This document shows positions 6,088 to 30,100 of a stretch of DNA of 32,000 nt, one piece after another (the first letter of the stretch is position 1; each line of letters opens with the position of its first letter). A program made the position numbers and the translations under genes. The notes beneath the pieces are model-generated. The model saw only the letters and a program-made list of their open reading frames with translations, was not told the DNA's origin and did not search any database. Origin of the DNA: Geotalea uraniireducens Rf4 (GTDB lineage Bacteria > Desulfobacterota > Desulfuromonadia > Geobacterales > Geobacteraceae); assembly GCF_000016745.1 (NCBI RefSeq), contig NC_009483.1:3000001-3032000 (forward strand). The letters run 5' to 3'.

Positions 6088-6103
6088 AGATGGTTATTTG
6101 AGA

Positions 6104-6775: not shown

Positions 6776-6791
6776 TTGCTACCCTTATCAG

Positions 6792-9090: not shown

Positions 9091-11271
9091 ATGAGACGCT
9101 ATCGACGGGTTATTTTCGGCATATTCCTGACGCTGACCGTCGCATGTCCCGCCATGACGGTCTGCGCCGTCGCAGCCGACCTGAAAAAAGCGCCGCCCGG
9201 CATAGCAGAGCGCCTGGATCAAGGCGCCACCCAGAAACTGATCGTCCTGTTCGATGACAGCGCCATTGAGCGGGAAGTTGCTGCAAACCGAAGCCGGACA
9301 GGCATTGAACATGATGATGACGCCATTCTGGCATTCAGAGCTTCGCGTTACAGGGAGCTGAAAAGCCGGGCAGAGCCTGCGGAGCTGAGCGGCGAGGTCG
9401 AAACGGTCAAAGACTACAGTCATCTGCCGATGTCATTCAAGCGTTTCAAAAACCGCCGTTCGCTGGAGAAATTCCTGGCTCTCCCTGAGGTGACGGCGGT
9501 CTACGAGAACCGGCCGATTTACCCGACCCTCGCCCAGAGCCTGCCGTTAATCAAACAGCCGGCAACAGCCGGTCTGGGGCTGACCGGGAGCGGCGCCACA
9601 GTGGCGGTAATCGATACGGGCATCAACTATACCCTGGCCGCTTTCGGTTCCTGCACGGCGCCGGGGACCCCCGCCGGCTGCCGGATAGCCGCCTCGGTGG
9701 ACATTACCGGCAACAACGTTACCCTGAACACCGACCCAAACGGCCATGGCACCAACGTGGCGGGGATTGTCTCAGGAGTGGCGCCGGGCGCCCGGATTGC
9801 CGCGATCAACGCCTTTACCGGCGGCGCGTCTTCCATCGCCTTGATCATTGACGGCATCAACTGGGCCATAGCCAACCGGAGCGCCTATAACATCGTCGCC
9901 ATCAACATGAGTCTGGGGGACGGCGCCAAATATACGGCTCCCTGCGGCAACAGCCACACAAACCCCTTCGTCACCCCGGTGAATAACGCCCGGGCCGTCG
10001 GCATCCTTCCGGTGGCCGCGTCGGGCAACGAGGGGTACTCGAACGGCATTGCCAGTCCGGCCTGCACTCCGGGGGTCGCCTCTGTGGGGGCTGTCTACGA
10101 CGCCAATGTCGGCGGGCGGCAGTGGTCAACATGTACCGACAGTACCACCGCAGCCGATCAGGTCGCCTGTTTCTCCAACAGCTCCAGCTTCGTGACCATG
10201 CTATCCCCCGGCGCGATCATCACCGCCGCCGGCATCGGCATGGGTGGTACATCACAGGCATCACCCCATGTGGCAGGGGCAGCCGCAGTATTCCGCTCGG
10301 CTTTTGCCGGCGAGACCCCGGATCAGACGCTCGCGCGCCTGACCGGCAGCGGTGTGCCCGTCACCGACCCGCGTAACGGCGTCGTCAAGCCGCGCCTCAA
10401 CCTGCTGGCCGCCTTGGGAGCGCCCATCAACGACAACTTTTCCGCACGCCAGGCGCTCAGCGGCGACACCGGCCAGCTCACCGGCAACAACGCCAACGCC
10501 ACCGTCGAGCCGGCCGAACCGGCCCACGCTGGCAACAGCGGCGGCAGATCGGTCTGGTGGAGTTGGACGCCTTCCGTTTCCGGTCCGGTTGCAATTGATA
10601 CACAAGGAAGCAGCTTCGATACCCTGTTGGCGGTCTACACCGGTACGGGCGTTACCGCCCTCACCCCCATTGCAGCAAACGACAACGACGGCGCCCCGGG
10701 AAACACCAGCGGCCTCTCCTTTGTTGCCCAGGCGGGAATAGAGTACCTCATTGCCGTGGACGGCTTCAACGGAGCCTTCGGCAGCACGGTCCTCAACTGG
10801 GGGCAGGCCCCCAGCGCCGATCTGTTCGTTACCATGACCGGCTCACCCGACCCGCTGGCGCCGGGTGAGACCCTGACCTACTCCATCTCGGTGGCAAACA
10901 GGGGACCGGCAACCGCCGTCAACACGACCCTGACCGATACCCTGCCGACTGGGGTGAGCGTCGTCTCTACCTCTGCCGGCTGCACGACGGCAGGTGGGAT
11001 CGTCACCTGCAACCTCGGCAGCATGGCAAGCGCCACCGCCGTCGGCCTCCAGATTGCCGTTTCGCCCGCCTCAGCCGGGACATTGACCAACACCGTGAAC
11101 GTTGCTTCAGATACCTACGAGCTCGCCCCTGCCGACAATTCAGCCGGCATCGCCACAACGGTTTCGCTTCCGCCGCCGGCAGTTCCGGCGCTCTCCCCTT
11201 GGGGGATTGCGCTGGCCGCCTGCCTGCTCTCAGGCTGGCAGCAGCATCGAAAACGGCGCAAACCCAATTAG
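9091..11271 (+). CDS. Secreted subtilisin-family (S8) serine protease with beta-sandwich and DUF11 repeat domains and a C-terminal IPTLxxWG-like sorting tail
   Basis: The signal peptide is MRRYRRVIFGIFLTLTVACPAMTVCAVAA. The catalytic triad motifs are VAVIDTGI (Asp), HGTNVAGIVSG (His) and GTSQASPHVAGAAAV (Ser). An NDNF...EPAEPAHAG...SVWWSW...FDTLLAVYTG beta-sandwich domain follows. A DUF11-type repeat (ETLTYSISVANRGPATAVNTTLTDTLPTGV) comes next. The terminal 29 aa, VPALSPWGIALAACLLSGWQQHRKRRKPN (11182-11268), comprise a motif, a TM helix and a basic cluster. Confidence 0.9.
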   Translation: MRRYRRVIFGIFLTLTVACPAMTVCAVAADLKKAPPGIAERLDQGATQKLIVLFDDSAIEREVAANRSRTGIEHDDDAILAFRASRYRELKSRAEPAELSGEVETVKDYSHLPMSFKRFKNRRSLEKFLALPEVTAVYENRPIYPTLAQSLPLIKQPATAGLGLTGSGATVAVIDTGINYTLAAFGSCTAPGTPAGCRIAASVDITGNNVTLNTDPNGHGTNVAGIVSGVAPGARIAAINAFTGGASSIALIIDGINWAIANRSAYNIVAINMSLGDGAKYTAPCGNSHTNPFVTPVNNARAVGILPVAASGNEGYSNGIASPACTPGVASVGAVYDANVGGRQWSTCTDSTTAADQVACFSNSSSFVTMLSPGAIITAAGIGMGGTSQASPHVAGAAAVFRSAFAGETPDQTLARLTGSGVPVTDPRNGVVKPRLNLLAALGAPINDNFSARQALSGDTGQLTGNNANATVEPAEPAHAGNSGGRSVWWSWTPSVSGPVAIDTQGSSFDTLLAVYTGTGVTALTPIAANDNDGAPGNTSGLSFVAQAGIEYLIAVDGFNGAFGSTVLNWGQAPSADLFVTMTGSPDPLAPGETLTYSISVANRGPATAVNTTLTDTLPTGVSVVSTSAGCTTAGGIVTCNLGSMASATAVGLQIAVSPASAGTLTNTVNVASDTYELAPADNSAGIATTVSLPPPAVPALSPWGIALAACLLSGWQQHRKRRKPN

Positions 11272-11392: not shown

Positions 11393-11776
11393 ATGCGATA
11401 TTCAGTTTTACTTGTTTTTCTTTTGCTATCCGCGGCGGCCTATGCCGATCAAAGCAGGATTACCGAGTATCCTGACCACATACTGGTGGAAATTACCGGT
11501 AGCGGCAGCACGACCCGGAAAAGCGGCGATGAACCGCAGAAGGCCGAGGCGCCTGCCGTCAAAAAGGAAATAGACACGGCGGAACGAACCGCGTTTCTTG
11601 CCGGGGAGATCGAACGGCTGAAGGCGGAGAAGGATGCAATTATGGCCGGAATGGGAGGGGAAAGCGCTGAAGAGCTTCGTCAGAAGCGGGTGCTGATGAA
11701 CGAAAAAATCCAGACGATGAACAGGTATGCCAACGAATTGGGACAGTTGCGAGCCAAAGCGGCAGGGAGCCTGTAG
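11393..11776 (+). CDS. Small secreted coiled-coil protein, unknown function
   Basis: A strong SD (AAGGAGAtagtaattATG) precedes the start. The signal peptide is MRYSVLLVFLLLSAAAYA/DQ. The charged heptad-like C-terminal half reads AFLAGEIERLKAEKDAIM...NRYANELGQLRAKA. The stop lies 9 nt before the next gene. Confidence 0.7.
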   Translation: MRYSVLLVFLLLSAAAYADQSRITEYPDHILVEITGSGSTTRKSGDEPQKAEAPAVKKEIDTAERTAFLAGEIERLKAEKDAIMAGMGGESAEELRQKRVLMNEKIQTMNRYANELGQLRAKAAGSL

Positions 11777-14250: not shown

Positions 14251-16689
14251 ATGAAACCATTTAAAGCAGATCTTCATCTTCACTCCAGCCACTCCAACAA
14301 GCCGACCTACTGGGCGATGCGCAAGTTCAACGTCCCCGAAAGCTACACCTCGCCCCAGCACCTCTATCGAATCGCCCGTGATCGCGGCATGGATTACGTC
14401 ACCATTACCGACCATAACTCGATCACCGGGGCTCTGGAGATCGCCCACCTTCCGAATACTTTCGTCAGTTCGGAAATTACAGCCCATTTTCCGGAAAACG
14501 GTTGCAAAGTTCATGTGGTCGTCCTGAACATCAGCGAATACAATTTTTACGACATCATGGCCTTGCGGAAAAATGTCTACGAACTTGTCGCCTATCTGAA
14601 TCGGGAAGAGATCGCCCATTTTCTCGCCCATCCGATCTACGCCCAGAACGATAAATTGACCGCGGAAATCATCGAAAAATGTCTGCTCCTCTTCACCACC
14701 TTCGAGGTGAAGAACGGCTGCCGAGCTCGACGTTTCAACGGTTTTACGACGCGTCTCATTTCAACACTGACCGAGGAACGTATCGAGCATCTGGCCGACA
14801 AGCACGCCCTGCAACCCTACGGCTCATGCCCCTGGAAAAAAGGGAAAGTCGGGGGATCAGACGATCACGGCGGTCTGTTTATCGCCCGGGCCCATACGGT
14901 TGTCGCCGGAGGAGAGTCGGTCAACGCATTTCTTACGGCCGTGCGCAACGGAGATACGTGGGCGGAAGGCGAGGACGGCGGGCCGCTCACCATGGCCCAC
15001 AGCCTGTACGGTATCACCTACAGTTATTACAAGGAGCGTTTCGGCGAGCGGCGGCGCAGTGCAACCCCCTTTGTCAGCGCTTTGTTGGACCGTTTCTTCA
15101 ACCTGGGCACAGACAAGTTATCTTTTATCGAAAAAGTCAGGCTGTTCGTCCGCAAAAACCTTCCGGAGTCCCGCAACGCAACCGGCAGGAGTTTCGAAGA
15201 GATCCTCGACAGCGAAGCCAGGCAGCTGCTTAACGATACCGAGTTCGTGGCGAGCATCAAGGATGTCGACCATAACCGGAAGATTTTTGCCGTGACAAGT
15301 CGCCTGGCAAACCGGATTCTCTTCCATTACACGAGGCGTCTCATGTCGTTGCCCGGCAATGCCGGGTTCTTCGACTATCTCAACACCATCGGCACAATCG
15401 GCCTGGTGCATCTTCTTATCTCCCCCTACTACCTTGCCTTTCACCACCAGCACAAAAGCAAGGAACTGATGCAGGAACTTTCGAAGCAACTCCCCGATCG
15501 CGCCACCCGGCAGCCGGCTGAAAAGATCGCCCTGTTCACCGACACGCTCGACGAAATCAACGGCGTGGCCATAACGATCCGGCGCCTCATCAGCACGGCC
15601 CGGAACAGGGGGATCGAACTGACGGTGATAACGGCGGGGAACTCTACCGATGATGAGATGGTAGGCGTAAAAAAATTCGCCGCTGTCGGCGACTTTGTCC
15701 TGCCGGAATACCCTGAACTGAAACTCAGCTTCCCACCAATCCTCGACGTGATGGATTTCATCGAGAGAGAGGGATTTACCTCCATCCACGTCAGCACGCC
15801 CGGCACGGTTGGGCTGCTCGGGCTGCTGATCGCCCGCATGATGGACATTCCCCTGGCCGGCACCTATCACACCGACATACCGCAGTACGTGCGCTGCCTG
15901 ACCAATGACGAATTCCTGGAACAGGCCGCCTGGAGCTACATGGTCTGGTTCTACAATCAGATGGAAGAGGTCATGGTTCCTTCGGTGGGAACGAGGGAGC
16001 AACTGCTCGCCCGCGGCCTGCCGGCCAACAAGATGAAGCCGCTCCCCCGCTGGGTGGACACCGACCAGTTCACTCCGGCCGGGAAAACCCCGCGCTACTG
16101 GGAGGACCGTGGTCTGACCGGTGCTGTAAAGCTGATTTACGTGGGGCGCGTCTCGCGGGAAAAGTCTCTAGAACTCCTAACCGAGGCTTTTCGCGAGTTG
16201 GTCGACACCGGTGCGGATGTGGGCCTCGTCATAATTGGCGACGGTCCCTATCGTCAGGAGATGGAGACAGCCCTCGCGACCTATCCGGCGCTGTTCACCG
16301 GTTATCTGCACGGGGAAGAGCTGCAACGCGGCTATGCATCGGCTGATCTTTTCGTCTTTCCCAGCGCAACCGACACGTTCGGCAATGTCGTTCTGGAGGC
16401 GCAGGCCTCCGGCCTGCCCGTGATCGTATCCAACGCCGGCGGCCCACGTGAACTTATGGTCGAAGGGGAAACAGGAGCGGTCTTCCAGGCGGGCAGCAAG
16501 GACGATCTTATCGCCGCCATCAGGCGCTTGACTGCGAGTCGCCGGCTGCTGGCCGAAATGGGGGAAAAGGCCCGCACGTTCACCCTGCAGAAGGCGCCGA
16601 GCGTGGACGAAACCTACAGCACCATTTTGCACACAGGCGCTGCAGCGATTATGACTGACGAACATCAGGCGCCAGCAGGCGCAGCATAA
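14251..16689 (+). CDS. Fusion protein: N-terminal PHP-family metal-dependent phosphoesterase, a central linker with a hydrophobic helix, and a C-terminal GT4 glycosyltransferase
   Basis: The PHP motifs appear in order: DLHLHSSHS, VTITDHN, SSEIT, VHVVVLN, GGSDDHG. A hydrophobic segment, FFDYLNTIGTIGLVHLLISPYYLAF, lies mid-protein. The GT4 half has KIALFTDTLDEINGVA, YVGRVSREKS and PSATDTFGNVVLEAQASGLPVIVSN. Confidence 0.88.
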   Translation: MKPFKADLHLHSSHSNKPTYWAMRKFNVPESYTSPQHLYRIARDRGMDYVTITDHNSITGALEIAHLPNTFVSSEITAHFPENGCKVHVVVLNISEYNFYDIMALRKNVYELVAYLNREEIAHFLAHPIYAQNDKLTAEIIEKCLLLFTTFEVKNGCRARRFNGFTTRLISTLTEERIEHLADKHALQPYGSCPWKKGKVGGSDDHGGLFIARAHTVVAGGESVNAFLTAVRNGDTWAEGEDGGPLTMAHSLYGITYSYYKERFGERRRSATPFVSALLDRFFNLGTDKLSFIEKVRLFVRKNLPESRNATGRSFEEILDSEARQLLNDTEFVASIKDVDHNRKIFAVTSRLANRILFHYTRRLMSLPGNAGFFDYLNTIGTIGLVHLLISPYYLAFHHQHKSKELMQELSKQLPDRATRQPAEKIALFTDTLDEINGVAITIRRLISTARNRGIELTVITAGNSTDDEMVGVKKFAAVGDFVLPEYPELKLSFPPILDVMDFIEREGFTSIHVSTPGTVGLLGLLIARMMDIPLAGTYHTDIPQYVRCLTNDEFLEQAAWSYMVWFYNQMEEVMVPSVGTREQLLARGLPANKMKPLPRWVDTDQFTPAGKTPRYWEDRGLTGAVKLIYVGRVSREKSLELLTEAFRELVDTGADVGLVIIGDGPYRQEMETALATYPALFTGYLHGEELQRGYASADLFVFPSATDTFGNVVLEAQASGLPVIVSNAGGPRELMVEGETGAVFQAGSKDDLIAAIRRLTASRRLLAEMGEKARTFTLQKAPSVDETYSTILHTGAAAIMTDEHQAPAGAA

Positions 16690-16710: not shown

Positions 16711-16890
16711 ATGACATTTGCAGAAATAAAAGCAATAGCCAAGGAACGGGGCATCAAGGTCGGCGGCGTGAAAAAGATCGATCTCGTCAGGTCACTCCAG
16801 GCCCAGGAGGGCAATGAACCCTGCTTTGCCACCGGCAGAGCTGCCGAATGCGGCCAGCTGCACTGCTTATGGATTAAATCCTGCGAATAG
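16711..16890 (+). CDS. Small SAP/Rho_N-like (helix-extended-helix) protein with a four-Cys C-terminus, 59 aa. Just below the ORF-track length cutoff.
   Basis: Hand translation gives MTFAEIKAIAKERGIKVGGVKKIDLVRSLQAQEGNEPCFATGRAAECGQLHCLWIKSCE*. A strong SD (cAAGGAGGtagctcATG) is present, 21 nt after the PHP-GT4 stop. The N-terminal 35 aa match the Rho_N/SAP-type pattern (..EIK.IAKERGIKV.G.KK.DLVR.LQ). The Cys spacing is C-x8-C-x4-C-x5-C. Confidence 0.7.
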   Translation: MTFAEIKAIAKERGIKVGGVKKIDLVRSLQAQEGNEPCFATGRAAECGQLHCLWIKSCE

Positions 16891-16928: not shown

Positions 16929-17927
16929 TTACTCGGGAGCCTGCCTCCCACCCTTTGCCCCGGGTTCGCCACGCAGCATGAGCAGCCAGAGCAGGACCGG
17001 CGCAAGGTACTGGCCGACCAGACTGATCCCCATTGACAGCCTGATTGCGGGTTCGTTGTGAAAGGCGGTCATCATCACATTGCAGATCCTGAACATGACC
17101 TGTATGCCGACGATGGCCGCCAGCCCCGCTGCCAGCGCCGTGAGTTTCCGCTGCATCACGCGGTGGCGGCTGGCCAGGACAAGCCCGACAAAGGTCACCA
17201 CGTTGAAGGTCTGATAATAAATCTCGTGCTGGTATGGTATTTCGAGACGATAGTCGAACAGAGCGAATAGAGCCGTAACCAGGTGATCGGTCAGCCTGAC
17301 GTACTCCTTGTTGATCGCAAGCCATACAAGAAAGGGAATGGCGGAAAAAGCAACGAAACGGACCGGAAAAGCGGCAGGCGTGAACCGTGGAGCGGCCGGC
17401 GATGCTGCTCGCAGCCATGCCATGCAGACGGCAAGGACGAACAGGACCATCAGGACCTGCCCGAGATAGACATGGACGAATTCGAAGAGATTCTGCTTTC
17501 GCAGGCCGATGGCGAACACCGCGGCAATGCGCAGGATGTTGCCCGCATGGAGAACCGGTATCCCGAGAGCCAGGCCGATAAGCTTCCGGCTCAGGGATAT
17601 CGGGTAGGCAATGACGAAGGAGAAGAACAGTATCCCCATGTAGAGGACCGAGCATTCCGTGATGACCCTGACCGCAAAGCCGTCCTGGCTGAGGGTGAGC
17701 CCCTGGAGGGCCGGATGGATGCCGAATGGTCCCAGGCAACAGGCAGACATGCGGGCGGTATGGCGGTTTAACGGCTCAAACAGGGATTCGGGCAGCCAGG
17801 TGGCGAGGGTATAGAGCAAAATACAGCAGATGCCGAATGTGACGGCAAACCTGACGTCGATGACGGACTGACCGGATGGTGCTCCGCTGCCGGCCCGCCA
17901 CGATTTAAAGCCCCTTTTCCGGTTCAT
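16929..17927 (-). CDS. Exosortase/archaeosortase-family transpeptidase (XrtH-like by context) with an additional C-terminal multi-TM region
   Basis: The conserved exosortase triad sits in its usual helices. Cys is in VITECSVLY (codon 17654-17652). Arg is in HAGNILRIAAV (17531-17529). His is in FVHVYLGQV (17474-17472). About 160 further residues carry about 4 hydrophobic helices. I prefer ATG 17927 over the track's TTG at 17939. The gene starts 24 nt after the PPIase stop. Confidence 0.75.
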   Translation of the reverse strand: MNRKRGFKSWRAGSGAPSGQSVIDVRFAVTFGICCILLYTLATWLPESLFEPLNRHTARMSACCLGPFGIHPALQGLTLSQDGFAVRVITECSVLYMGILFFSFVIAYPISLSRKLIGLALGIPVLHAGNILRIAAVFAIGLRKQNLFEFVHVYLGQVLMVLFVLAVCMAWLRAASPAAPRFTPAAFPVRFVAFSAIPFLVWLAINKEYVRLTDHLVTALFALFDYRLEIPYQHEIYYQTFNVVTFVGLVLASRHRVMQRKLTALAAGLAAIVGIQVMFRICNVMMTAFHNEPAIRLSMGISLVGQYLAPVLLWLLMLRGEPGAKGGRQAPE

Positions 17928-17951
17928 GGAACCATCCAAAAAATATTCGGA

Positions 17952-18932
17952 TTACATCTCGGCCGGGTTGATCTCCACTCGCGCTTTTTTGCGCAGGTCC
18001 CCGGCGTAGCGGTTGGCCTTCTCCATCGCCTTTTCCTGCTTGAGGTACTCCGAGATCTTCCCCTCTGCCGCTTCATAGGCTATCACCTGCTCCGGCTTTC
18101 TGTCGGTGAGACGGATCAAGTGCAGGCCGAACCTGTCCTCGACAATGCCGCTCGTTTCCCCCACTTTCAGGTCCATGACGGCATCCTCCACCACCCTGGC
18201 CATCTCCCCGCGCCGAAAAAAGCCCAGATCGCCCCCCTGCTCCTTGCTGCCGCATTCCGAATAGGCGCGGGCCAGTGCATCGAACGATTCGCCCTTTCCG
18301 ACCTTCTCACGGATGCCTTCGATCTTCTTCTCAGCCTCCGCCCTGGCTTTGCCGGTCATGCCGCCGGTCCTGACCAGAATATGGCTGATTCTGACCTGGA
18401 GCGGCCGCTTGAAGGTGTCGGGGTGGCTACGGTAATACCCTTTCTTTTCCTCATCCGTAACCGTGCTCTGCCCGGCAAACTGCCGGTCGATATAGGTCCT
18501 GACCGCGATTCCCCGTTCGACGATATTCCTGAGCGATGCCTCGGACACGTGCAAGCTGCTCAAGGCCGAGCTGAATTCCATCTCGTTGGCGAAACGTGTC
18601 TTCAGCCTGGCCAGTTCCTCGTCGACTGCCGTCGCAGCAACACCGATGCCACCCTTCCGGCTTTCCTGGTAGATGAGTTCACGACGGATAAGATTGTCCA
18701 GTGCTTCCTGCTGGATTTCCTTGAGCAGGGCCGGGCTGAATAGCCTGACGCTGCGGCTCCGCTTGAGGCGCTCCAGTTCACCATTACACTCTTCCCGGCT
18801 GATCGGGGCGCCGTTTACCACGGCACAATTCAGTTGCCGGGCGGTCTCTTCGGCCGGAACCGGCGCTGCCGGAAGCGACAGCATTGCAACTGTCAGTGTA
18901 AGACGAAGACCGGCCTGTATCGCATTGCTCAT
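17952..18932 (-). CDS. Periplasmic parvulin-type peptidyl-prolyl isomerase, SurA/PrsA/EpsD-like
   Basis: The signal peptide is LRLTLTVAMLSLPAAPVPA. A SurA_N-like chaperone region is followed by a rotamase core (VRISHILV...GGDLGFFRRGEM...FGLHLIRL). The reverse-strand reading GGAGGatgttcATG favours the second ATG (18932). Confidence 0.85.
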   Translation of the reverse strand: MSNAIQAGLRLTLTVAMLSLPAAPVPAEETARQLNCAVVNGAPISREECNGELERLKRSRSVRLFSPALLKEIQQEALDNLIRRELIYQESRKGGIGVAATAVDEELARLKTRFANEMEFSSALSSLHVSEASLRNIVERGIAVRTYIDRQFAGQSTVTDEEKKGYYRSHPDTFKRPLQVRISHILVRTGGMTGKARAEAEKKIEGIREKVGKGESFDALARAYSECGSKEQGGDLGFFRRGEMARVVEDAVMDLKVGETSGIVEDRFGLHLIRLTDRKPEQVIAYEAAEGKISEYLKQEKAMEKANRYAGDLRKKARVEINPAEM

Positions 18933-18973
18933 GAACATCCTCCGTGGCTCACTCCGTCGCGGCTGATTCCGCT

Positions 18974-19130: not shown

Positions 19131-20849
19131 CTAAAAACGCACATTGACATTGGCTTGAAAGGTATCGACCGCGAACTTGGGGCCGACTATTTCGTTGGTG
19201 GTCAGCCATTTTGCCGACAACGACAGGTTTTTGGCAACCCCGATTTCGCCCCCCAGAATCCACCCCTCCGCATTGGTGCCTCCTGCGTGAAAATCCGATT
19301 CGGCAAAGGCATCGATAACCGCATCGGCCTCCAGATGCTTGTAGAAAAGGTAACTCTGCCAGTCGCCAAGGTTCTGCACCTTGGGATAGCCGACCGTCAC
19401 GCCGAACTGGTACCCTTCCGTCTGTTTTGTCGTAAGATCACTGTTCCAGTCCCACAGCGGCTTTTGCAACACTTCGGAGTAATCGAAGCCGATGTTGTTG
19501 ACGTAGTCGGCCAGCAGCACCACATGGACAGGGTTCCAGAAACCGATATCCAGCATGCCGGTGAGGGCCAGTTCCCGATACTTGCCCGCCAGGGCCAATT
19601 TGTACAAACCGGTCTGATCTATAAACATTCGGGTATTCCCCTTTTGCTGAAACTGCGGCATGGTCCAGTCGTTGGTGCTAGAACCCGGTTCGTTCATGAT
19701 CCCTTCCGTATGCTCAAAATCGTAAAACGCCACGCCGAATTTCGCCGAAAGCTCTTCACTCGGCTTGTACTCGACCCCCACCTGGCCGGCTAAGAGCCAC
19801 TTGTCCCGCTGGGAGAATTCGATCTCCTGAAGCGGAAAGGCGCCTGCCGTAACGAAGCCGGAAAGGGTTTCCGTCACCCTCGGGGTCCAGGTTACGGCCA
19901 AGCCGTCAAAGTTCACGTCCGGGTCCCAGACCAGGTCGCTGTAAAACCAGGGGTTGGGGAAACGTCCGCCGAGAACTGCCAGCTCCGGTATGGGTCTTAT
20001 CCTGAAATAGGCCTGGTCGAGAACGAAGGTCTTCTTGTTGAAGAAGTCTCCCAGGGTCGCGTTGGTTGACACCGGATCGGTGGTGTTCCCCGTGGCCAGG
20101 CCGATGACAGCATCGGTCTGGTCGTTCACCTTGGCGGTTACGTTGAGCCTTGCCCGCAATCTGACCCGCTGGCGATTAATATGGGAATTCAGTGGTTCAG
20201 GCTTGTCATTGCGGTAAAAATCAGCGTTGCTGTCATCGAAGAAAATGCTTTCGTAGCGGAAGCGCAGGTCCCCCCCGAGCTTGATCCGTTGCGCCCACTC
20301 TGACGAGGCAATCGACTTGGTGACCTTGTTAACCCCCTCCGTCACCTGATCCTGAACACTCTGCTTCACGTCGCCTGCTGCGCTGTCCGCGACCGTTTTC
20401 AGGTAATGCCCCTCCCGGTTGCCGACAACCTCGCTGATGGCCCCGGCCAGGTAGCGCTTATGGTAGGTCTCGCTCAACTGCTCGGCCTCTTCGCCGCTCA
20501 GGATGCCCATCACCCTCATCCGCTCTATGATCAGGTCCGCATCCCTGACCTCGTTGTAAAGTTCGTCGAAGTCCTCCCCGCTTCTCTCCCCGGCAATCCA
20601 CTTTTCCCGCAACTGGCCGATCAGAACCGACACATCGTCACCGGGCATGACCTGTTCATTCAAACGACTGCCGATGGTTGCTGCCTCTTCACCGGTAATG
20701 ATCCCTTTTGTCTGCAAAAGCTCAAGGAGAGCGCCGACGCCCCCCTGCTTGCCGCTGCCGGCTGCCGGTTCAGCACAGAATGCGGGAAAGGATCCGCCAC
20801 CAATAACCATTATGGTCACACTGATAATGAGTGTGATTCGCTGCCACAT
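19131..20849 (-). CDS. Porin-like outer-membrane beta-barrel protein with an N-terminal helical repeat region
   Basis: An SD plus ATG (ctGGAGGttttcaATG) sets the start at 20849 (MWQRITLIISVTIMVIGGGSFPAFCAEP, a signal peptide). There are three copies of a motif of about 27 aa: LLELLQTKGIITGEEAATI, LIGQLREKWIAGERSGEDFDEL and IIERMRVMGILSGEEAEQL. The C-terminal roughly 390 aa have alternating amphipathic strands (YQFGVTVGY, WILGGEIGVA, LSLSAKWLTT). The protein ends in FQANVNVRF, a terminal aromatic residue typical of OMPs. Confidence 0.75.
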   Translation of the reverse strand: MWQRITLIISVTIMVIGGGSFPAFCAEPAAGSGKQGGVGALLELLQTKGIITGEEAATIGSRLNEQVMPGDDVSVLIGQLREKWIAGERSGEDFDELYNEVRDADLIIERMRVMGILSGEEAEQLSETYHKRYLAGAISEVVGNREGHYLKTVADSAAGDVKQSVQDQVTEGVNKVTKSIASSEWAQRIKLGGDLRFRYESIFFDDSNADFYRNDKPEPLNSHINRQRVRLRARLNVTAKVNDQTDAVIGLATGNTTDPVSTNATLGDFFNKKTFVLDQAYFRIRPIPELAVLGGRFPNPWFYSDLVWDPDVNFDGLAVTWTPRVTETLSGFVTAGAFPLQEIEFSQRDKWLLAGQVGVEYKPSEELSAKFGVAFYDFEHTEGIMNEPGSSTNDWTMPQFQQKGNTRMFIDQTGLYKLALAGKYRELALTGMLDIGFWNPVHVVLLADYVNNIGFDYSEVLQKPLWDWNSDLTTKQTEGYQFGVTVGYPKVQNLGDWQSYLFYKHLEADAVIDAFAESDFHAGGTNAEGWILGGEIGVAKNLSLSAKWLTTNEIVGPKFAVDTFQANVNVRF

Positions 20850-20924
20850 TGAAAACCTCCAGATAGTTGAGTCCATTTATGTAATCTAGTGCTGATCTTC
20901 AGCCATCAAGACAAAGCAAGCGCC

Positions 20925-21006
20925 TCCCCCTTTAAGAAAGGGGGAATGAGGGGGATTTGCCTGTCGCATTCTAAATCCCCCCTGGCCCCCCTTTCCCAAA
21001 GGGGGG
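20925..21006. repeat. Triple-hairpin G5/C5 intergenic element, copy A
   Basis: H1 is tCCCCCTTTaagAAAGGGGGa (20925-20945). H2 is GGGGGATTT-14 nt-AAATCCCCC (20950-20981). H3 is CCCCCCTTTcccAAAGGGGGG (20986-21006). It lies between tonB and the porin-like gene. Confidence 0.85.
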
Positions 21007-21019
21007 TAAAACCTTAATC

Positions 21020-21754
21020 CTATCCCTGCAACGAAATTTTCAGGTTCATGCCGCTCGGCATCCCCTCCGGCGGCGGCTCGCTGATGTGTATGAGCCTGAT
21101 TGCTTCCAAAACCGCTTTGTCCATTCTTTCATTTCCGGACGTGCCGGTAATGCTGAACTTGACCACCGTGCCCCGCTGATCGAGAAAAATCTTGACCAAG
21201 GCCTGGTTTTTCCCTTTCGGGTAGCCGCCTTCCCGTTCCAGGCGTTTTTTCACCTGGTTGCGGATTTCGTCCTGAACCTTCTGGGTATACCAGCCGTACC
21301 TGGCCAGGAGCGACAGGCGGTTTGCGCCGCCGCTGTTGCCGCCACCGATCAGCCCCCGGCCACCCTTTTTCCCCACAAGGCCGAAACCGTCCGACCCGGC
21401 ACCCCCCTCCCCGTCAACCCCCAGGTCGCTGCCGGCAGGGGTGTTGTCCTGCGGTTGATCCTGGGCCTGGTTCTGCGGCGACTGCGGGGATTCCTGGGGA
21501 GTAGTGATGGTCTCCTTGGGGATCTCTTTCTGCACCTGCGGGGGAGGTTCCGGCGGTTTTTCCTTCACATCGGGCGGCGGCTTGATCAGCGTGATACTGG
21601 CGATCTTCTCCTGTTTCCGCCCGCCGTCATCGGACAGCATGATCCTGATCACAAAGACGATCAGACCGAGAAAGACCAGGCCGATCACCCCCGGCACCAG
21701 CCAGGTTTTGTACAATCCTGTGAGAGTGTCTTTTTTATGTTTCAACTTTTTCAC
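21020..21754 (-). CDS. tonB: TonB-family energy transducer
   Basis: GTG start with GGAG 5 nt upstream. An N-terminal TM anchor (WLVPGVIGLVFLGLIVFVI) is followed by a Pro/Glu/Lys-rich spacer (KPPPDVKEKPPEPPPQVQKEIPKE). An unusual Gly-rich stretch follows. The C-terminal TonB_C-like domain reads YPKGKNQALVKIFLDQRGTVVKFSITGTSGNERMDKAVLEAI. Confidence 0.85.
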   Translation of the reverse strand: MKKLKHKKDTLTGLYKTWLVPGVIGLVFLGLIVFVIRIMLSDDGGRKQEKIASITLIKPPPDVKEKPPEPPPQVQKEIPKETITTPQESPQSPQNQAQDQPQDNTPAGSDLGVDGEGGAGSDGFGLVGKKGGRGLIGGGNSGGANRLSLLARYGWYTQKVQDEIRNQVKKRLEREGGYPKGKNQALVKIFLDQRGTVVKFSITGTSGNERMDKAVLEAIRLIHISEPPPEGMPSGMNLKISLQG

Positions 21755-21782
21755 GGCTACTCCATGCGGATTCCGATGGATA

Positions 21783-21867
21783 CCCCCCTTTTAGAAAGGG
21801 GGGCCAGGGGGGATTTCTCCGCGGCAATCATTGTAAATCCCCCTAAATCCCCCTTTCTCAAAGGGGG
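21783..21867. repeat. Triple-hairpin G5/C5 intergenic element, copy B (inverted relative to copy A)
   Basis: The hairpins are CCCCCCTTTtagAAAGGGGGG (21783-21803), GGGGGGATTT-18 nt-AAATCCCCC (21807-21843) and CCCCCTTTctcAAAGGGGG (21849-21867). The spacer CCA between the first two hairpins is the reverse complement of the TGG spacer in copy A, which gives the opposite orientation. It lies between exbD and tonB. Confidence 0.85.
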
Positions 21868-21889
21868 ACTTTATGCTTCCGGCTGGAAA

Positions 21890-22297
21890 CTATTTGACCA
21901 GCTTCTGCGTCACTAGTCCGAGCTGGGTAATCTCCAGTTTTTGCAGAAGGTCCAGCACCTCGATGATGTTCTTGTAGGAAATTTTTTCATCCCCCCTGAC
22001 CACCACCGGGAGATTCGGGTCGGACGCCTTGGCCTGGCGCAGCCGGGATTCCAGGTCCGAAATCGTGACCGGAAAACTGTCCAGGTAGATCGTCCCGTCC
22101 CCGGTGATGGTGATCGCCTTGGTGGTCGGCTTGATCTTGCTGGCCGCGGCGCTCGCCTTGGGAAGGTTGACGCTGATCCCCTGCACCGAGGCGGTAACCA
22201 CGAGCATGAACACGACCAGGAGATTCCAGGCCAGGTCCAGCATCGGGACAACATTGATTTCTACAATGTCTTCGTGATCATCTGCCGGCGCTTTCAT
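21890..22297 (-). CDS. exbD: ExbD/TolR-family biopolymer transport protein
   Basis: 135 aa. INVVPMLDLAWNLLVVFML is the conserved TM segment with the essential Asp. A periplasmic domain follows (ITITGDGTIYLD...VVVRGDEKISYKNIIEVLDLL). The start overlaps the exbB-like stop (ATGA, 22294-22297). Confidence 0.9.
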   Translation of the reverse strand: MKAPADDHEDIVEINVVPMLDLAWNLLVVFMLVVTASVQGISVNLPKASAAASKIKPTTKAITITGDGTIYLDSFPVTISDLESRLRQAKASDPNLPVVVRGDEKISYKNIIEVLDLLQKLEITQLGLVTQKLVK

Positions 22298-24090
22298 GCG
22301 GATTCTCCGTAATTCCCTGCGATCTTGAGGTTGAGCTCTTCAATGAACAGCCGGGTATCGATATTGACGTTTTTCATCTGGGCCGCCAGGTATGTGTAGG
22401 CGAACAGCGCCGGGATGGCGACCAGGAGACCGAACAGTGTACAGGCCAGCGCCGAAGCGACACCCGGCGCAATGGCTGCCAGGCTGGCTTCACCGGACTC
22501 GGCCAGGCTGGCGAAGGTATTCATGACCCCCCACACCGTCCCCAGCAGTCCCCAGAACGGTCCGCCGGAGATCCCCAGCGTCAGGACCATCATCCAGCCG
22601 TTAAGTTTCTTTGTTTCATTGGTGCTGGCCCGGTCCAGGGCAGCCTCCACATAATTCAGGGATGCCCTGCTTAGGGCGTTCTTCTTCGAGGAGTTCGCCC
22701 GCTCCAGGCAGCGCTGGACTTCGTCATAACCGGCGCAATAGATGCGCCACAGGGACGAGTGCTGGAAGGCCTCTTCCTCTTCATGAAGCGCCAGGGGATC
22801 GTCGAGTTCGCCGAAAATGGCAAGGAAGGCATGGTTCCCCTTGGTGATTTTCTGCAGGGCGATGAACTTGCGGACGAAAACGTAAGTGGCCAGGAGAAGC
22901 ATGCCTGTGCAAAGGCCGATGACCAGCCAGCCGTCGAGGGAGATGCTCTTGGAAATGACCCGCATCATGTGGATGGTCATATCTTCGCCGCCACCCTTGC
23001 CGCCGGCCTCCTCCTGCTGGTAGGCGGAGAGCTTTCCCTCCTGCCCCTGGCTGCCGAAGGCGACGCCGATCCATCCGGCAGAGCGGGCAACCGACGATAT
23101 CTCCACTTCATCCATCTCACCCGCATAGAAACCGCCGCCGTTCAGGGCAGCGCCGACCGCCAGCTCCGCAGCAGGAGAAGGTAGCGCCACGGCCAGAGGC
23201 GCAGCAGCAGCTTCCCGGCCATCCAGGTAGACGACAACCCTCTTGCCCGGCTCCGCGGAGACGGCCAGGTGATGCCAACTCTGGGAGGTGATAGCGGGGG
23301 TCTTGCCGGTGACAGCCTGCTTGCCGTCCCCAGTGATGCGGCAATAGGCGCCGGCCGGGTCCAAGCCGACAACGATCGACTGGCTGCCGTCATCCCAGGA
23401 AAAGAGGCGCGCATCGGCAGCTGTTCCGGCCGGCTTGAGCCATGCGGAAAAGGTAAAACCCTTGCTGAAGTTCAGTGATGACGAGCGCTTGATCACCAGC
23501 CTGTCGCTGCTGCCGTTGAACGCCGCGCCATTGCCGATGGCCGCCGGTATCCCCAGCTTGCCGCTGAACTCGGCTCCGTGATTGGCATAGGCAGTGGCGT
23601 CACGGGGCGTGCCCTCCTTCTCGTCGAAATGGAAAGACGCCGCCATGGTCGCGTCGTAGGTCCCGCCGTCATCAGGGACGGCTTCAACCGAATTGTTGCC
23701 GTAATAGATCCAGACGGAATCCTGTGCTGATCCGCCGGTGATCTGCGGTACCTTGACCCAGAACAGGCCGATGGCAAGCTTCGGATCGTACTTCTCCAGG
23801 TGCGCCTTGAGCGGGGTCTTGTCATCGCCGCTGACGAACCTGATGTCGGAGCCGTCATCCTTGGCATTGGCGAAGGTGAAATTCCCTGCATGGAGGCGGA
23901 GCAGGACCGGCACCTCGGTCAGGTTGTCCTTGATGTTCGTCCCCTTATCCGTGGTGTCGAAAGCCACCTTCTTGCGAAACTGCCATTTTGCATCCCACCA
24001 GGCGTTGGCCTGGAGCACGCCGGTCATCATCACCAGGGCGATTACCATCCCGGTGACGCTCAATAATTTCCCATGAATACTTCCCCTCAT
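22294..24090 (-). CDS. exbB: MotA/TolQ/ExbB proton-channel protein fused to an N-terminal DUF2341 plus LamG (concanavalin-A-like lectin) module
   Basis: The signal peptide is LLSVTGMVIALVMMTGVLQANA. DUF2341-like motifs are present (WWDAKWQFRKKVAFD, DGSDIRFVSGDD, VWIYYGN). A LamG-like region runs FHFDEKEG...FTFSAWLKP...WHHLAVSAEPGKRVVVYLDG...FYAGEMDEVEISS. Three TM helices follow, with the ExbB signature GGPFWGLLGTVWGVMNTFASLA. GGGAGGaatggcATG sets the start at 24090, 24 nt after the giant gene's stop. Confidence 0.85.
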   Translation of the reverse strand: MRGSIHGKLLSVTGMVIALVMMTGVLQANAWWDAKWQFRKKVAFDTTDKGTNIKDNLTEVPVLLRLHAGNFTFANAKDDGSDIRFVSGDDKTPLKAHLEKYDPKLAIGLFWVKVPQITGGSAQDSVWIYYGNNSVEAVPDDGGTYDATMAASFHFDEKEGTPRDATAYANHGAEFSGKLGIPAAIGNGAAFNGSSDRLVIKRSSSLNFSKGFTFSAWLKPAGTAADARLFSWDDGSQSIVVGLDPAGAYCRITGDGKQAVTGKTPAITSQSWHHLAVSAEPGKRVVVYLDGREAAAAPLAVALPSPAAELAVGAALNGGGFYAGEMDEVEISSVARSAGWIGVAFGSQGQEGKLSAYQQEEAGGKGGGEDMTIHMMRVISKSISLDGWLVIGLCTGMLLLATYVFVRKFIALQKITKGNHAFLAIFGELDDPLALHEEEEAFQHSSLWRIYCAGYDEVQRCLERANSSKKNALSRASLNYVEAALDRASTNETKKLNGWMMVLTLGISGGPFWGLLGTVWGVMNTFASLAESGEASLAAIAPGVASALACTLFGLLVAIPALFAYTYLAAQMKNVNIDTRLFIEELNLKIAGNYGESA

Positions 24091-24114
24091 GCCATTCCTC
24101 CCGAGTCTTTCCCT

Positions 24115-27100
24115 TTACTGCTGTTTATTTTCCGTGTCGCGTTTATCGTCCGCATCGTCGAAACTGCTGTCGAAACTGATCACCTTGACATCGAGCCATT
24201 TGGCCACGAAATCCTCTACCGCCTGGTTGCCCGAAGCGGCGGTCTTATCCTTCCCCGCGCCAAGGCTATTGGTCTGCTCAATCATCTTGCCGCTGTCCGC
24301 CAGCCCGCCGGCCCCCGCCAGCGCGCCGATGCTGACCCCGCTGTCGGCCGCAGTGGCGCCGACCACGGACCCGACAGAGGCAGCAATGTTGCCCGCATTA
24401 ACAAGATTCGGAGTGTCAACCACGACTATGCCCCCGGCAATCCCCGCCTCCCCGGCATCAATCGACCCTTTCGTCGCAGAGAGGTTGACGTCGCCCTGTT
24501 GCGTACCGGGAGTATAGCTCAAGGTCCGAATGCCGCTCCCCACCGCCGGCGGGCTGAAGACCAGCATGTATTCAGCAGGAATTTTTCCTTCCGGGTCGAG
24601 CGCTCCCGTGCCATCTTTCAATACCAGTTTAGGCGGATCGGCGCTGATGGCCGCTTTGGACCCTCGCCCGGCATTGATGCTCCCCTTCTCGCTCCAGACG
24701 TTTATGTCACCACCGTCAAAGGTCATCACCCTCGCTTCGTTGACGTTCACGTCCCCCCCGGCGTAGATGTTGATGTTGCCACCCTTTGCGGTGAAGATCC
24801 CTGTGTTTTTCAGATTCTCTTCCTTTTTCTTTTTATCCAGATTGATGGTGCTCTTCCCCACATTAACCGCCTCCCGCGCCAGGATGTAAATGTCGTCAGC
24901 CCCGGAATTGGTGCTGATCTGGGAGGAGGTCATATTGATATTGCCGCCGTCATTTGCCGGATCTGCGTTCAGGGCATAATAGGCGGCAACTGCCGTTCGT
25001 TCATCGGCAAGCCGCTGATCTGCCGCAGCATAAAGTTCTTCAAATTTTTCCAGATTGTCGTGTTCTTTCTCGAAATTCGCTTGCGCCTTGAGTTGTTGAA
25101 TTTCAACAGCGGTATTTTTCATACTGTCGAATTGACCTGTTACATCAGCAAAACCCGCCGCAATAAGGAGATCGCTCCCCTTCGCACCCAGGTTCTGATT
25201 AAAGGCCCCGCCATAGGTCTGGAGGCCCCTGGTGGTGCCGAGATCGATGTTGTGACCGGCCTGGACCAAAAGTGTGCCCGAACCGCCCAGCTCGATGCCT
25301 GTGCTGCTGTTGTCGCTCCCCGAAAGGGAGCTGAAGAAAATATCCCGGCCCGCCTGGATGGCCGTCATATCGCTCGCCGAGTGGTTCTGGCCGACAAGAT
25401 ATATGTCCCGTACGTCCCGGCCGGCGCTGATTTGCGCCTGTTTCGGAAGGAAGAGTTGCAGGTTCTTGATGTCACCGCCCGCCGTGATCGTGATGGGAGA
25501 TGGGTGCTGCTGACGCTCTGACTCCCATTCAGGATCGGTGTTGTGCGAGTGGGAATCGAAAAAAGTGGATTCTTTCGGAATAGCGTCTGGATTGGTATTT
25601 GTATGGGCGTTGTAAACTGTCTCGGGGTCAATGTCCGACATGGAGATTTTGGTGTTGCCTGTATCTCCGTGATTCACGCCGCGGATGTCCCCACCTGCAA
25701 TCAGTGTGAGTCCCCCCTGTGCCGAAGGGGCCAATGCCAGATTATTGCCCAGGTTGATATTACGGCCGGCTGCAATCTCCAATGTCGGGGGGAGTATCCG
25801 CGCCTTCCAAAGAGCATTGAAAATAGAGTAATAGTTGCCGGAAGTAAGTCCGGAAATGGCCACGTCACCGTTCTTGGCATGCAACCGAACCTTGGAGTCG
25901 CTGCTGTAAAGGAGATTCCACCTATAGTCGTTGCCGCCGTTATTAATAACAACGGTTGGGTTGACTACCGAGCCAAGGGTGACGTTCCCTTGGGCCGACA
26001 CATCAGCTTTCGTGGCAAAGGCCTCTATGACCGTTTCCACAGGAGTGCTTAGTCTGCCATAACTGTCAGTGGTCTGCGCTGTGCCGAAGTTGCCGAGACT
26101 ACGCAGCTCGGCATTTCCCTGCCTGGTCAGAAAGCGTCCATTCAGGTTGCCACCCGTATGGAGCAGCAAATCACCACTGCCGAAGGTCCCCGCCTGGGAG
26201 TTGAAATCTCCGCCACTAATCACTTCAAGTGTGCCGCCGGCCATTGTCGCCAATCCGCGCACAGGCTCATTTTTCCCGTTTATTTTGAAAGAGGCACTCA
26301 GGAAATACTGCGCAGTAGTCCCAATCCCCACTTTGTTCATGTAATACCAGGCAGCCGGCGCCACGCCCCCCTTGATGTCTCTTCCCGCAGTCAAGGAGAT
26401 GTCGCCTCCGCCGGCATAGTCCCAGTAGTTGCCGGCAGGCGTGGTCTGCTCGCCGGTGGTACGGATGGAACCCAAGAGGCCGCCAGGCTCAAACAGGTTG
26501 AAGTCGCGGGTGACACTGATTGCAATATCTCCGGTCGCCGACTGAATTACCCCACTCTTGTTCATCACCAGGTCCCCTTCCACATTACCCTGGATGGTGC
26601 CGCCATAGGTGCCTATGTTATATTTCAGGTCATTATTGATCATAGAACTTGCGGAAATGGTGCCGATGACGGTATTGCCGCCCGATGCAAAACTGACGGG
26701 CGCCTTCTCACTATAAACCGACTGCTTGTCTGCGATCGTCAAGATCCCTTTGTCCGGCTTGACCGCCATGGGATCTGCGGCATTCAGATCAGCGCCGGCC
26801 ACGAGCCTGATCCCCCAGGAAGCGGCGCCGCCGTTGGTTCCCGGGAGTGCGCTCTTGGCCGTGGGTGAATCCGTCAGGGAATTGTTGATGTTCAGGTTTC
26901 CCGCCGCACGCAAGGTCAGGACTCCCGGCTGGCCTGCTGCTCCAAAGCGCCAGAAGGTAAGATCCCATGGCGTGTTCAGGGTGAGGGAGCCACTGCTTCG
27001 CACCTCGATGCCGGGACGGAGATCAAACTGGCCGGCGCTGACCGTCTGACTTTCCATCAAGGCCGCAATGGCGGTGTTCCAGCTGGTCAGGTCGTCTGAG

Positions 27101-30100
27101 GTAATGGTGCCGGCATTCTGCGGATTGACGACCTGTACGGCCTCTGCCGTTTTGCTCGACGCTCCCTTGACGGTGACGTTCAGGTTGCTGGTATTGACGC
27201 GGCTGCTGTCAAAGGCGGCTGCAGGCGCCCGTAAAGATACGCTCCCTCCTTTACCCGCCCCGCTTACATCTATCGATCCTCCGGCCAGGTTCAGGACCCC
27301 GCCGGCTGTACCGAGGGACACGTCGCCGCCGGTACCGTTTGCTGCCGTAGCCTGTGCCCCTATAGTGCCGCTGAGCGATAAATCCTTCCCCGCATTCAGC
27401 GCCACGGTCCCTCCCTGGTTCCCCGAGGCATCGACTGTTCCGGCAACGGTGACGTTACCGGCATCAGCCGCCACCCTGAAGAGATGGGCCTTCACCCTGT
27501 CATCCGCGGCAACCGTCACATCCCCGTTACGGCTGCGGATGTTCAACTCTTCGGTGAAGCCCCCTGCCGCCACCTTGTCGTTGAGGGCGGAAAAAGTTGC
27601 CAACTGGCAGGTATCGAGGGTAAGGGAGCCACCTTTGCCACCGTTGCTCATGCCTAGCAATTCGCCGCTCAGGTCTGCTTCCCGCTTATCCGCAATGATT
27701 GCGACAGTGCCGGCATCGCCTGCTCCCGGCGCGGAAACGTCAATTTTTGCGTCCTTTTCAAGGGTCATGACCCCGGCGGAACGGAGTTCAATCCGCCCGG
27801 CAGATTCACTGTCCGTGGTTCCGTCGGCATTCGGTTTGTAATCATGCCCCCTCGCCCGGATCGCGGCGCCGCTCCGGAGTTTGATCCCGTCATCGGTCCC
27901 GGTCCCGGTCGCCTCCAGTTTCACCCGGCCGGCGGGGAGGTCGATGAGACCGCTGCTCTCTATGCTCCCGGCAGTGATGTGGATGGCGCCGCCAAGCGCC
28001 GTATCCTGCCCTGCCTGGGCACCGCTTGAGGCGAGCGTAAACGTCCCGGAACCTGCATCTATCTTGAAATTGGCCGCCTGGTAGGTGGGGGCGAGAAGCG
28101 CGCCGTTGGCATCGGTGACTGTACCCCACTCCACATTTGGGGCCGCCGTCAGCCTGGCTGTTGTCATGTTCAGGTCAGCGCCGTTGGTCGTTAGCGAGCC
28201 AACCCCTTTCAGGGTCATATCGTTCGTGCTTTTAAGGTCAACTTTGCTGAAGCCGTCGAGCATGCCATCACCCTTGCCGATGGTCATGCTGTCCGTGGCG
28301 GTAAGGCTAAGCTGGCCGGTGGCGGCTGATGCTGCGCCGGTATACTTCGCGCCGCTGTTGAGCAGGGTGATTACCGGTGCGGTAAGGGAAACAGCTCCGG
28401 TGCCCCCCGTCTTGGCGATCCGCCCGGCATCGATGGTCAAAGCCTTGGTCGCTGACTCGGTGAAATCCCCGTAGAATGTTATATCCGAGCTTTTCAAGGT
28501 AACGTCGGTAAAAGGGTGTGTGTTTCTTTCGCTTGCAACGGTGAGCCGCTTCCAGAGTGCATCGGTAAGGTAGAACGCAGTGGCTGAGCTGCCGGACTTA
28601 TAGTCCTCAGCCACAAAGGAGAGCTTGTCCCCCTTGAGAATAAGCTTGCCGTTGTCTGCAACCAGGGGCGAGTCCCCCTGCAGCTCAACCTGCTTCGTCT
28701 CAAGGCTCACCGTATCGGTAGCCTGGACCTGCCCCCCCGCCTCCACGACAATTTTGTTCTGACTGACCAGATTGACGGTCCCGCCGCCATCTGCCGTTGA
28801 CGCCGGTGTCCCCGTTATCTTGGCTTTGACCTGTGCGTCTTTTTCGATGGTAATGGCGTCTTTCGCAGTCAGGGTTACCGTCTCCGCTTCCAGGGTCGTC
28901 CCCTGCTTCACCGTAACCGTCACGGTCGAGTTCGCGGTATTTGCGGCATCAATCGAGCCGAGCCTGACCTCTTTCAGCCCTTTTCCCAGGGTCGAGGCGG
29001 CCAGTTGGAGCGTTCCAGCCAATCCGGCAGGAACCGGGCTCGCGAAATTGAAGCCCTTGTCCAGGGGAACCGTATCTGCCTGGACCGTCACGTTTTTGCC
29101 GCTCAGGTCTACCACCCCGCCGCTGGACCCGGCAACGGCGTCCGCCTTCAGGGTCCCGTTGAGGATCGTGGTGCCCCCCAGCAGGGTTATCGTGCCCGCA
29201 TCGCCGCCGCTGAACTCGGTGGCAGATGGTTTTGTTGCTACATCGCCCGTCAGGTACGCCCCCGGCGTGAAATTACCCTCCCTGAGCACGTCCGCAGCAC
29301 TGCGCACCGCATACCCCTTGAAAACCGGCGAACTGATGCCAGTCCCCACGACCGTCTCATAACCGGCGGCCACCGGATACCCTTCGGTGGTAACGAATTG
29401 TCTACCCGGCATCACCGTGCTTCCCAGGTCTGTCAGGATCAGCGCCCCCGGCAGAAAAGCGTACTGCTCGGGGAGAAGTGAATAGGTCCCCTCGTTTAGA
29501 TAGCTGCCGTCACTCAGACGGATTGCCGCCAGGTGAACGGCGCAGAAGGGCTTGCTCTTTACCTTCCCGTCCACGTCCGTATAGGTGTAAGTGAAGCCGG
29601 GCAGCTGCACCGAATTGTCCGGAACAATGACATAGCGGTCAGGGCGAGTTTTCTGATTGTTCAGAATCCCTTTAGCAGTGATCGGATTCACCGTCCCCTC
29701 GATACCGGGCATGAACGTGGTTGCGTAAACGGAACCGCCGCCGGACACGTCGATCGTCGCCTGCTCCCTGACAATCACCTCTTTGCCGTTGATGGTGATA
29801 GACTTTTCCGGGGCCGCAGTCACGATTGTCCCCTTTGATTCGAGGCCCGACTTCTTGTCCATGAATCGCATGACCCCGTCGGCATCGACAAAGCCGTACG
29901 CCACCGGCGCAGTGCCGGCAGTGGTCAATGTGCTCCCCGGCGCCAGGTATACGCGACTCGTGGCGGCATAGGCGGGGGCATTGTTCAAGGAGATCGTCCC
30001 GAGCGGGGCGGCAATGAAACCATTGTGCTCGATGCCTTTTTTGGCATTGATGGTGAGGCTGCCCCCTGCTGAGTAGACCGGAGTGGAAACAACAGGCGCC

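Follow-up and report, generated by a model that had tools for sequence, protein, structure and literature searches.

Long-form exosortase H of Geotalea uraniireducens Rf4 with a C-terminal half that is probably a duplicated and inactive exosortase core

We analysed a stretch of 32,000 nucleotides (nt) of Geotalea uraniireducens Rf4 (contig NC_009483.1, positions 3,000,001 to 3,032,000; this whole stretch is called the window below), in which the gene of interest encodes a long-form exosortase H (XrtH) with its catalytic core in the N-terminal half of the protein. Profile comparisons of the sequences indicate that the C-terminal extension is probably an ancient tandem duplicate of this core in which catalysis has been lost. 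We favour, at a probability of roughly 0.7, an overall explanation in which the long-form XrtH combines an active N-terminal core with a dead repeat of the exosortase fold, the tail of a nearby subtilase is cognate to the enzyme, and the SurA-like parvulin peptidyl-prolyl isomerase (PPIase) encoded directly upstream is not a universal partner. The window gene is ordinary in itself and the architectural insight is modestly interesting; what the second half is seems not to have been described, as there is no Pfam or NCBIfam model for it and the architecture was not found in the literature. The gene and its two parts lie at these positions:

16929..17939 (-), long-form exosortase H gene (XrtH), matching TIGR04177, with homologues of 300-350 aa
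17397..17855 (-), catalytic exosortase core, residues 29-181, covering TIGR04177 positions 1-157/158 and scoring 39.5 bits with PF09721
16962..17384 (-), C-terminal four-helix domain, residues 186-326, probably a degenerate dead repeat of the exosortase core, as judged by hhalign, the helix pattern of an AlphaFold2 (AF2) model and conservation

The window gene is a genuine member of the exosortase H family and its orthologues already carry the label XrtH. Its open reading frame (ORF) encodes 336 aa from TTG 17939 or 332 aa from ATG 17927, and the ATG is the more likely start; it is also the one that gene callers chose for P0001, a relative with 94% identity to the window XrtH. Against NCBIfam, residues 29-181 scored 244.8 bits with TIGR04177 (exosortase H, cutoff 86), followed by archaeosortase B with 66.2 bits (cutoff 150) and XrtX with 63.9 bits (cutoff 170), so that all exosortase and archaeosortase subfamilies other than TIGR04177 stayed at about 66 bits or below and each under its own cutoff. 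TIGR04178, the signature region of exosortases and archaeosortases with conserved Cys, Arg and His, gave 44.9 bits (cutoff 23). The triad was read directly from the motifs VITECSVLY, GNILRIAAV and FVHVYLGQ and from the codons of Cys96 (17654-17652), Arg137 (17531-17529) and His156 (17474-17472), which are spaced C-x40-R-x18-H; the three columns were 100% conserved in 132 two-domain relatives and invariant in alignment A3. These results bear out a preliminary description of this DNA, which had reported an intact triad with this spacing, an exosortase core limited to the first half and an enzyme of the XrtH type, and the check for a subfamily with a different cognate tail returned XrtH as the best match, so the assignment stands. 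The further suggestion of a new subtype did not hold, because two-domain proteins already make up a large clade of 221 clusters at 50% identity, and NCBI and JGI label members of it exosortase H.

Residues from about 186 to 326 had no match in Pfam, and their sole NCBIfam match was non-significant (YfbV, E 0.043). As the preliminary description had expected, the C-terminal half is unlike the EpsI domain of XrtA-type enzymes, with no EpsI-type family matched in Pfam or NCBIfam, and the four or so helices that it had placed after the core appear in the AF2 model as four long helices; scoring against the two databases also answered whether this half belongs to a standard exosortase model, as none covers it. 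The phrase "uncharacterised accessory membrane domain" was thus correct in that no family model covers the half, and profile comparison refines it to what is probably a duplicated and inactivated exosortase core. When profiles of the N-terminal and C-terminal domains, with 132 diverse sequences per domain, were aligned by hhalign, the probability was 95.5% (E 1.6e-8, score 52.0) over 111 colinear columns. Forty controls with a block-shuffled C-domain reached a probability of at most 9.6% and an E-value of at best 0.0025 (score 14.3 +/- 3.3, maximum 23.1), and the reversed C-domain gave 0.2% (E 0.25, score 11.6, 6 columns). Twenty-two single-domain exosortases aligned with the C-domain at 85.8% (E 5.4e-6, score 39.8, 112 columns), and this comparison is independent because those proteins were never in the two-domain set. 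The hidden Markov models (HMMs) of the N- and C-domains also weakly cross-matched the other domain in dozens of proteins, mostly in the same register.

It is unlikely that the C-terminal half is instead an unrelated accessory membrane module gained by fusion, transporter-like or acceptor-binding, with XrtH and the PPIase forming a dedicated sortase-foldase pair. The lack of a Pfam or NCBIfam family for this half would suit such a module, but the half is colinear with exosortase cores far above the controls, and the matches to the C-domain alone that were examined (one a fragment at a contig edge, the other a split gene) included no convincing free-standing gene. A duplicated core is also suggested by the family alignment, in which the second half echoes the layout of the first, with a cytoplasmic "RKL..LA.G" loop, an Arg-bearing helix (FRICNV in the C-half, LRIAAV in the N-half) and a "GQ" motif in the last helix. 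In the alignment of the two halves, Arg284 falls on the catalytic Arg137, nothing matches His156, and a 12-column deletion lies precisely over the strand bearing Glu-Cys. No conserved Cys or His was found in the C-domain across the 132 proteins, and its best kept residues were Gly272 (99%), Pro314 (98%), Trp206 (96%) and Tyr213 (95%), with Leu253 also among them. The AF2 model of XrtH (predicted local distance difference test 85.9, predicted template modelling score 0.83) gave the following correspondence of elements in the N-half and the C-half:

helices 29-48 and 51-72 of the N-half, helix 190-226 of the C-half
beta-hairpin 77-91 of the N-half, loop 227-241 of the C-half
helix 99-111 of the N-half, helix 242-256 of the C-half
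helix 116-147 of the N-half, helix 262-293 of the C-half
helix 149-179 of the N-half, helix 296-321 of the C-half

The conserved positions could also be taken to mean that the C-domain holds a second, non-canonical active site or channel (e.g. Tyr213, Asn246, Arg284, Gln310) that transfers to a lipid or glycan acceptor; the polar and aromatic helix positions given above are well kept, as is Arg284 (86%), and polysaccharide-synthesis genes flank the locus. We consider this very unlikely, as none of the nucleophiles Cys, Ser or His is conserved in the C-domain and a 171-aa XrtH, scoring 202.7 bits with the same TIGR04177 model, has neither the domain nor a neighbouring equivalent. Because such short XrtH proteins do without it, the C-domain is not needed for the basic chemistry of the family.

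Several points weigh against the duplication and the explanation built on it. A shallower hhalign run with 27 sequences gave a probability of only 47% (E 1.9e-4, score 30.8, 103 colinear columns), with control scores of about 13 for the reversed domain and 12.6 +/- 2.4 (maximum 21.1) for block-shuffled ones, and shared hydrophobic periodicity can inflate profile-profile scores between domains with multiple transmembrane (TM) helices. Arg284 is kept in only 86% of the 132 members. The two halves of the AF2 model were compared at the level of their secondary-structure strings only; the family profile had 0 matches at E<=10 among PDB sequences, and a Foldseek search of the model against the PDB gave none below E 1, with no exosortase structure there for comparison. 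The counts of IPTL-type tails cover only the window and the available flanks. A literature search found no experimental study of exosortase H, and cleavage, acceptor and the role of the C-domain are thus inferred.

The C-terminal extension is not private to the window gene. The initial homologue search returned 46 full-length homologues, almost all of 300-350 aa and spanning both halves, and several of them were already named exosortase H by NCBI or JGI (e.g. in Geobacter pickeringii, Syntrophobacteraceae, Geobacteraceae and Candidatus Deferrimicrobium). When the profile of the C-half (alignment A2) was searched against 1.84 billion representative proteins, 221 matches were obtained at E<=1e-3 and 154 at E<=1e-10, each match being a cluster at 50% identity. 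A rescan of 190 proteins with separate N- and C-domain HMMs showed that virtually every complete protein consisted of an XrtH-like core followed by the C-domain. Matches of 150-200 aa were considered as free-standing C-domain genes and rejected in the two cases examined; in the split case (L019), the C-domain ORF begins 27 nt after a 137-aa exosortase ORF. These separate halves of L019 would also be expected if the long ORF had arisen artificially, by read-through or mis-assembly between an exosortase gene and a membrane-protein gene downstream of it, but that idea is effectively refuted by the continuous two-domain ORF in more than 130 clusters (50% identity) from independent assemblies, including one finished genome; the AF2 model, which packs both halves confidently, also speaks against it.

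The short XrtH mentioned above (P0200) is without the C-terminal extension and lies among housekeeping genes (aroK, aroB, pdxH, yggT, proC, pilT), where no C-domain gene was found nearby. TIGR04177 therefore spans short and two-domain architectures and describes only the half that they share. In a neighbour-joining tree of the catalytic domains, the two-domain proteins formed one clade and all forms of 166-205 aa fell outside it; this tree is crude and its sampling biased, and its topology is consistent with a single origin of the two-domain architecture. The large protein index appeared to sample candidates unevenly (only two matches with the N-domain alone; mostly short forms with the N-domain alignment) and was not used for frequencies. 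Two contigs of metagenome-assembled genomes, CAWGGE010000001 (L001 and L003) and CAVYEB010000002 (L002 and L004), each carry two long-form XrtH paralogues that lie far apart, with 57-60% identity to the window XrtH, a hint that one genome may hold several IPTL-type sorting sub-systems.

Compared with known systems, the window core matches exosortase H (TIGR04177) end to end, with the triad intact and a TIGR04174 protein encoded nearby; the model, with 158 positions, corresponds to the first half only, and the window XrtH adds about 140 aa of what is probably a dead repeat. Like the 8-TM exosortases of the XrtA/EpsH kind (PF09721, TIGR03109, TIGR02602; some of them fused to EpsI), it belongs to the same catalytic superfamily, has about 8 TM helices and is encoded near a polysaccharide cluster. 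Unlike them, it aligns in the core only (PF09721 positions 104-250/254), its extra helices are C-terminal and not N-terminal, an EpsI-like domain is lacking and the sorting signal is IPTL instead of PEP. The protein is also not an XrtA-EpsI fusion, as the XrtA model TIGR03109 gave 18.9 bits (cutoff 208) and the C-half matched no family. Inactive rhomboid homologues are pseudoenzyme partners that came from duplicated intramembrane enzymes. By analogy, the C-half may be another dead copy of a polytopic membrane enzyme kept under selection; unlike the inactive rhomboids, this putative dead copy and its active counterpart form a tandem within one chain.

Exosortases are widespread, but we came across no solved structure of one and only scant direct biochemistry. 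The duplication gives an identity to an unannotated stretch of about 140 residues and suggests a testable structural model, in which the long form would be a pseudo-dimer and the short forms possible homodimers. The N-terminal four-TM core would be the active transpeptidase or protease, with Cys96, Arg137 and His156 near the outer ends of their helices. It would recognise the IPTL-CTERM tail of the subtilase, and probably of other proteins elsewhere in the genome, the tail being cleaved at the outer face of the inner membrane and the protein handed to an acceptor. As the fused partner in a pseudo-dimer, the dead repeat may pack on the active domain and serve stability, docking of the TM helix of the substrate or binding of the acceptor. 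Each half is predicted to have both its N-terminus and its C-terminus inside, and basic residues are clustered in the N-terminus of XrtH, in the 257-261 loop and in the C-terminus. More tentatively, the long-form XrtH might be a natural single-chain pseudo-dimer, in which tandem duplication gave one active and one dead protomer; this doubtful extension of the model implies that minimal exosortases with 4-5 TM helices, such as the 171-aa XrtH, act as homodimers and that the dead half took on a new role in binding the substrate helix or the acceptor.

The best-supported partnership of XrtH is with a protease, and it is stronger than that with the PPIase. Its window member is encoded on the opposite strand:

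9091..11271 (+), subtilase (Peptidase_S8 and DUF11; PF00082, PF01345, TIGR04174) with an IPTL-CTERM tail, the predicted XrtH substrate
11182..11268 (+), IPTL-CTERM tail with VPALSPWG, a hydrophobic helix and HRKRRKPN, read directly and matched by TIGR04174

The C-terminus of the subtilase reads VPALSPWG-IALAACLLSGWQQ-HRKRRKPN, and residues 698-724 scored 33.4 bits with TIGR04174 (IPTL-CTERM, cutoff 20.5), which agrees with the co-occurrence expected of exosortase H and IPTL-CTERM proteins; the tail has the form [V/I]P[A/T]LSxWG, TM helix and basic cluster. It is the sole IPTL-type tail in a six-frame translation of the window. The giant DUF3739 protein encoded further upstream of XrtH was weighed as another substrate and rejected, as its C-terminus lacks such a tail. 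In L017, a subtilase with 65% identity and a VPALS-type tail has its stop 4 nt upstream of the XrtH ATG. In L001 and L008, proteases with VPALGQWG and TPALGPWG tails are encoded about 3 kb from XrtH, and, read by eye, they look S53/sedolisin-like. In three metagenomic clusters (P0055, P0070 and P0075), a single chain contains the XrtH core, the C-domain, an S8 protease and a VPAL-type tail; DUF11 is present in P0055 and P0070, and the tail is a full VPALSPWG in P0055 and degenerate in P0070 and P0075. The protease part of P0055 has 59% identity to the window subtilase, with the signal-peptide region included, and the retention of this region fits the topology predicted for XrtH. The protease partnership offers a concrete substrate for experiments and the protease-XrtH fusions a useful experimental handle; if the tentative single-chain pseudo-dimer reading is true, these fusions would provide a model, complete in itself, in which the chemistry of exosortases could be studied.

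A second fusion class was also seen, in which a conserved domain of about 350 aa comes after the long-form XrtH (P0113, P0120, P0131, P0144, P0151, P0152, P0154, P0156 and P0179). The members have 23-42% mutual identity over the extension; six of them (P0113, P0120, P0131, P0144, P0151 and P0179) were scanned and gave no Pfam match, and the domain has no counterpart in the window. At the P0179 locus (L022/L023, 8001-10061), an FGE-sulfatase-like gene and a TPR/GT41 gene are among the neighbours.

The PPIase gene is followed upstream by a set of envelope genes on the same strand, assigned by Pfam:

17952..18938 (-), SurA-like parvulin PPIase, directly upstream of XrtH, with PF13624 (SurA_N_3) and PF00639 (Rotamase)
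19131..32000 (-), the upstream genes collectively
19131-20876 (-), Porin_5
21020-21754 (-), TonB_C protein
21890-22297 (-), ExbD
22294-24090 (-), DUF2341-LamG-MotA/ExbB fusion
24115 to window end (-), giant DUF3739 filamentous-haemagglutinin-like protein of the two-partner secretion type, with its ORF open at the window end

The PPIase ORF encodes 328 aa with a signal-peptide-like N-terminus, SurA_N_3 and one parvulin domain, and 18932 is the second ATG of this ORF and the start used by gene callers in relatives (326 aa). Exactly 24 nt separate the end of its stop (17952) from the XrtH ATG (17927), which is the distance given in the preliminary description. In being a parvulin-type periplasmic PPIase that adjoins an exosortase gene, it resembles the EpsD PPIase (TIGR02925) of PEP-CTERM/XrtA loci, but it scored only 26.4 bits with the EpsD model (cutoff 108.9), and its best NCBIfam match was the generic PRK00059 at 107 bits (cutoff 303). 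The earlier proposal to take it as an EpsD-like marker of an exosortase locus was therefore dropped, and in annotation a PPIase beside XrtH should not count as such.

A jackhmmer search of the ORFs of 21 loci placed a parvulin near the long-form XrtH only in the window lineage (L011-L014) and in Geobacter pickeringii (L016), and none was found within 7-10 kb of XrtH at 12 loci (L001-L010, L015 and L017). The dedicated sortase-foldase pair, which goes with the unlikely view of an unrelated C-terminal module, finds some support in the close spacing of the two genes on one strand and in their recurrence in G. pickeringii at 39-45% identity. Besides its failure with the EpsD model and its absence from those 12 loci, the PPIase of G. 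pickeringii (39% identity) is transcribed divergently from XrtH. As a general unit, the pair that the preliminary description had proposed is thus not upheld, and the arrangement is lineage-specific at best. A contig scan with one rigid peptide pattern returned 10 loci and was too narrow for statistics on the co-occurrence of PPIase and XrtH, and a metagenome scan with the PPIase returned one locus, from the same species.

Unlike EpsD, the window PPIase travels with the cluster of Porin_5, TonB, ExbBD and giant adhesin genes and not with XrtH generally. In G. pickeringii (L016, 9258-17005), XrtH and the PPIase stand beside the same envelope gene set, and a polysaccharide-synthesis cluster is near in both lineages. 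Because this gene set recurs beside it in both PPIase lineages, the PPIase is more economically read as a periplasmic chaperone of the envelope module (adhesin, ExbB/ExbD/TonB and Porin_5). XrtH merely happens to stand last in this cluster in the window lineage. The giant DUF3739 protein measures 3214-3385 aa in relatives. The window shows no TpsB-type transporter gene, and a route for the giant protein energised by ExbBD/TonB is a speculation.

The window also carries a polysaccharide cluster of Wzx/Wzy type at 629-8796 (-), composed of GT4, a methyltransferase, GT2, Wzy_C, a MatE-like flippase, a hexapeptide transferase, DUF218 and an NAD epimerase/dehydratase. The GC content is 0.34-0.36 at 4001-7000 and 0.55-0.66 across most of the remaining window, and because of this drop the low-GC segment is suggested to be a horizontally exchanged, serotype-type segment. 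The stretch from the subtilase to the 3' end of XrtH also holds these genes:

11393-11776 (+), 127-aa ORF, no Pfam match
11786-13975 (+), 729-aa ORF, no Pfam or NCBIfam match
14251-16689 (+), 812-aa protein with a GT4 glycosyltransferase as its C-terminal half
16711-16890 (+), 59-aa ORF with a strong AAGGAGG ribosome-binding site, no Pfam match

The N-terminal part of the 812-aa protein, about 430 aa, had no Pfam match and opens with a DLHLHS...TDHN motif, which gives the impression of a PHP-phosphoesterase-like region. The 127-aa and 729-aa ORFs, between the subtilase and this glycosyltransferase, occupy the same position in the closely related contig L013, and a 59-aa gene is called in L011-L014 at the position of the 59-aa ORF, which separates the glycosyltransferase from the 3' end of XrtH.

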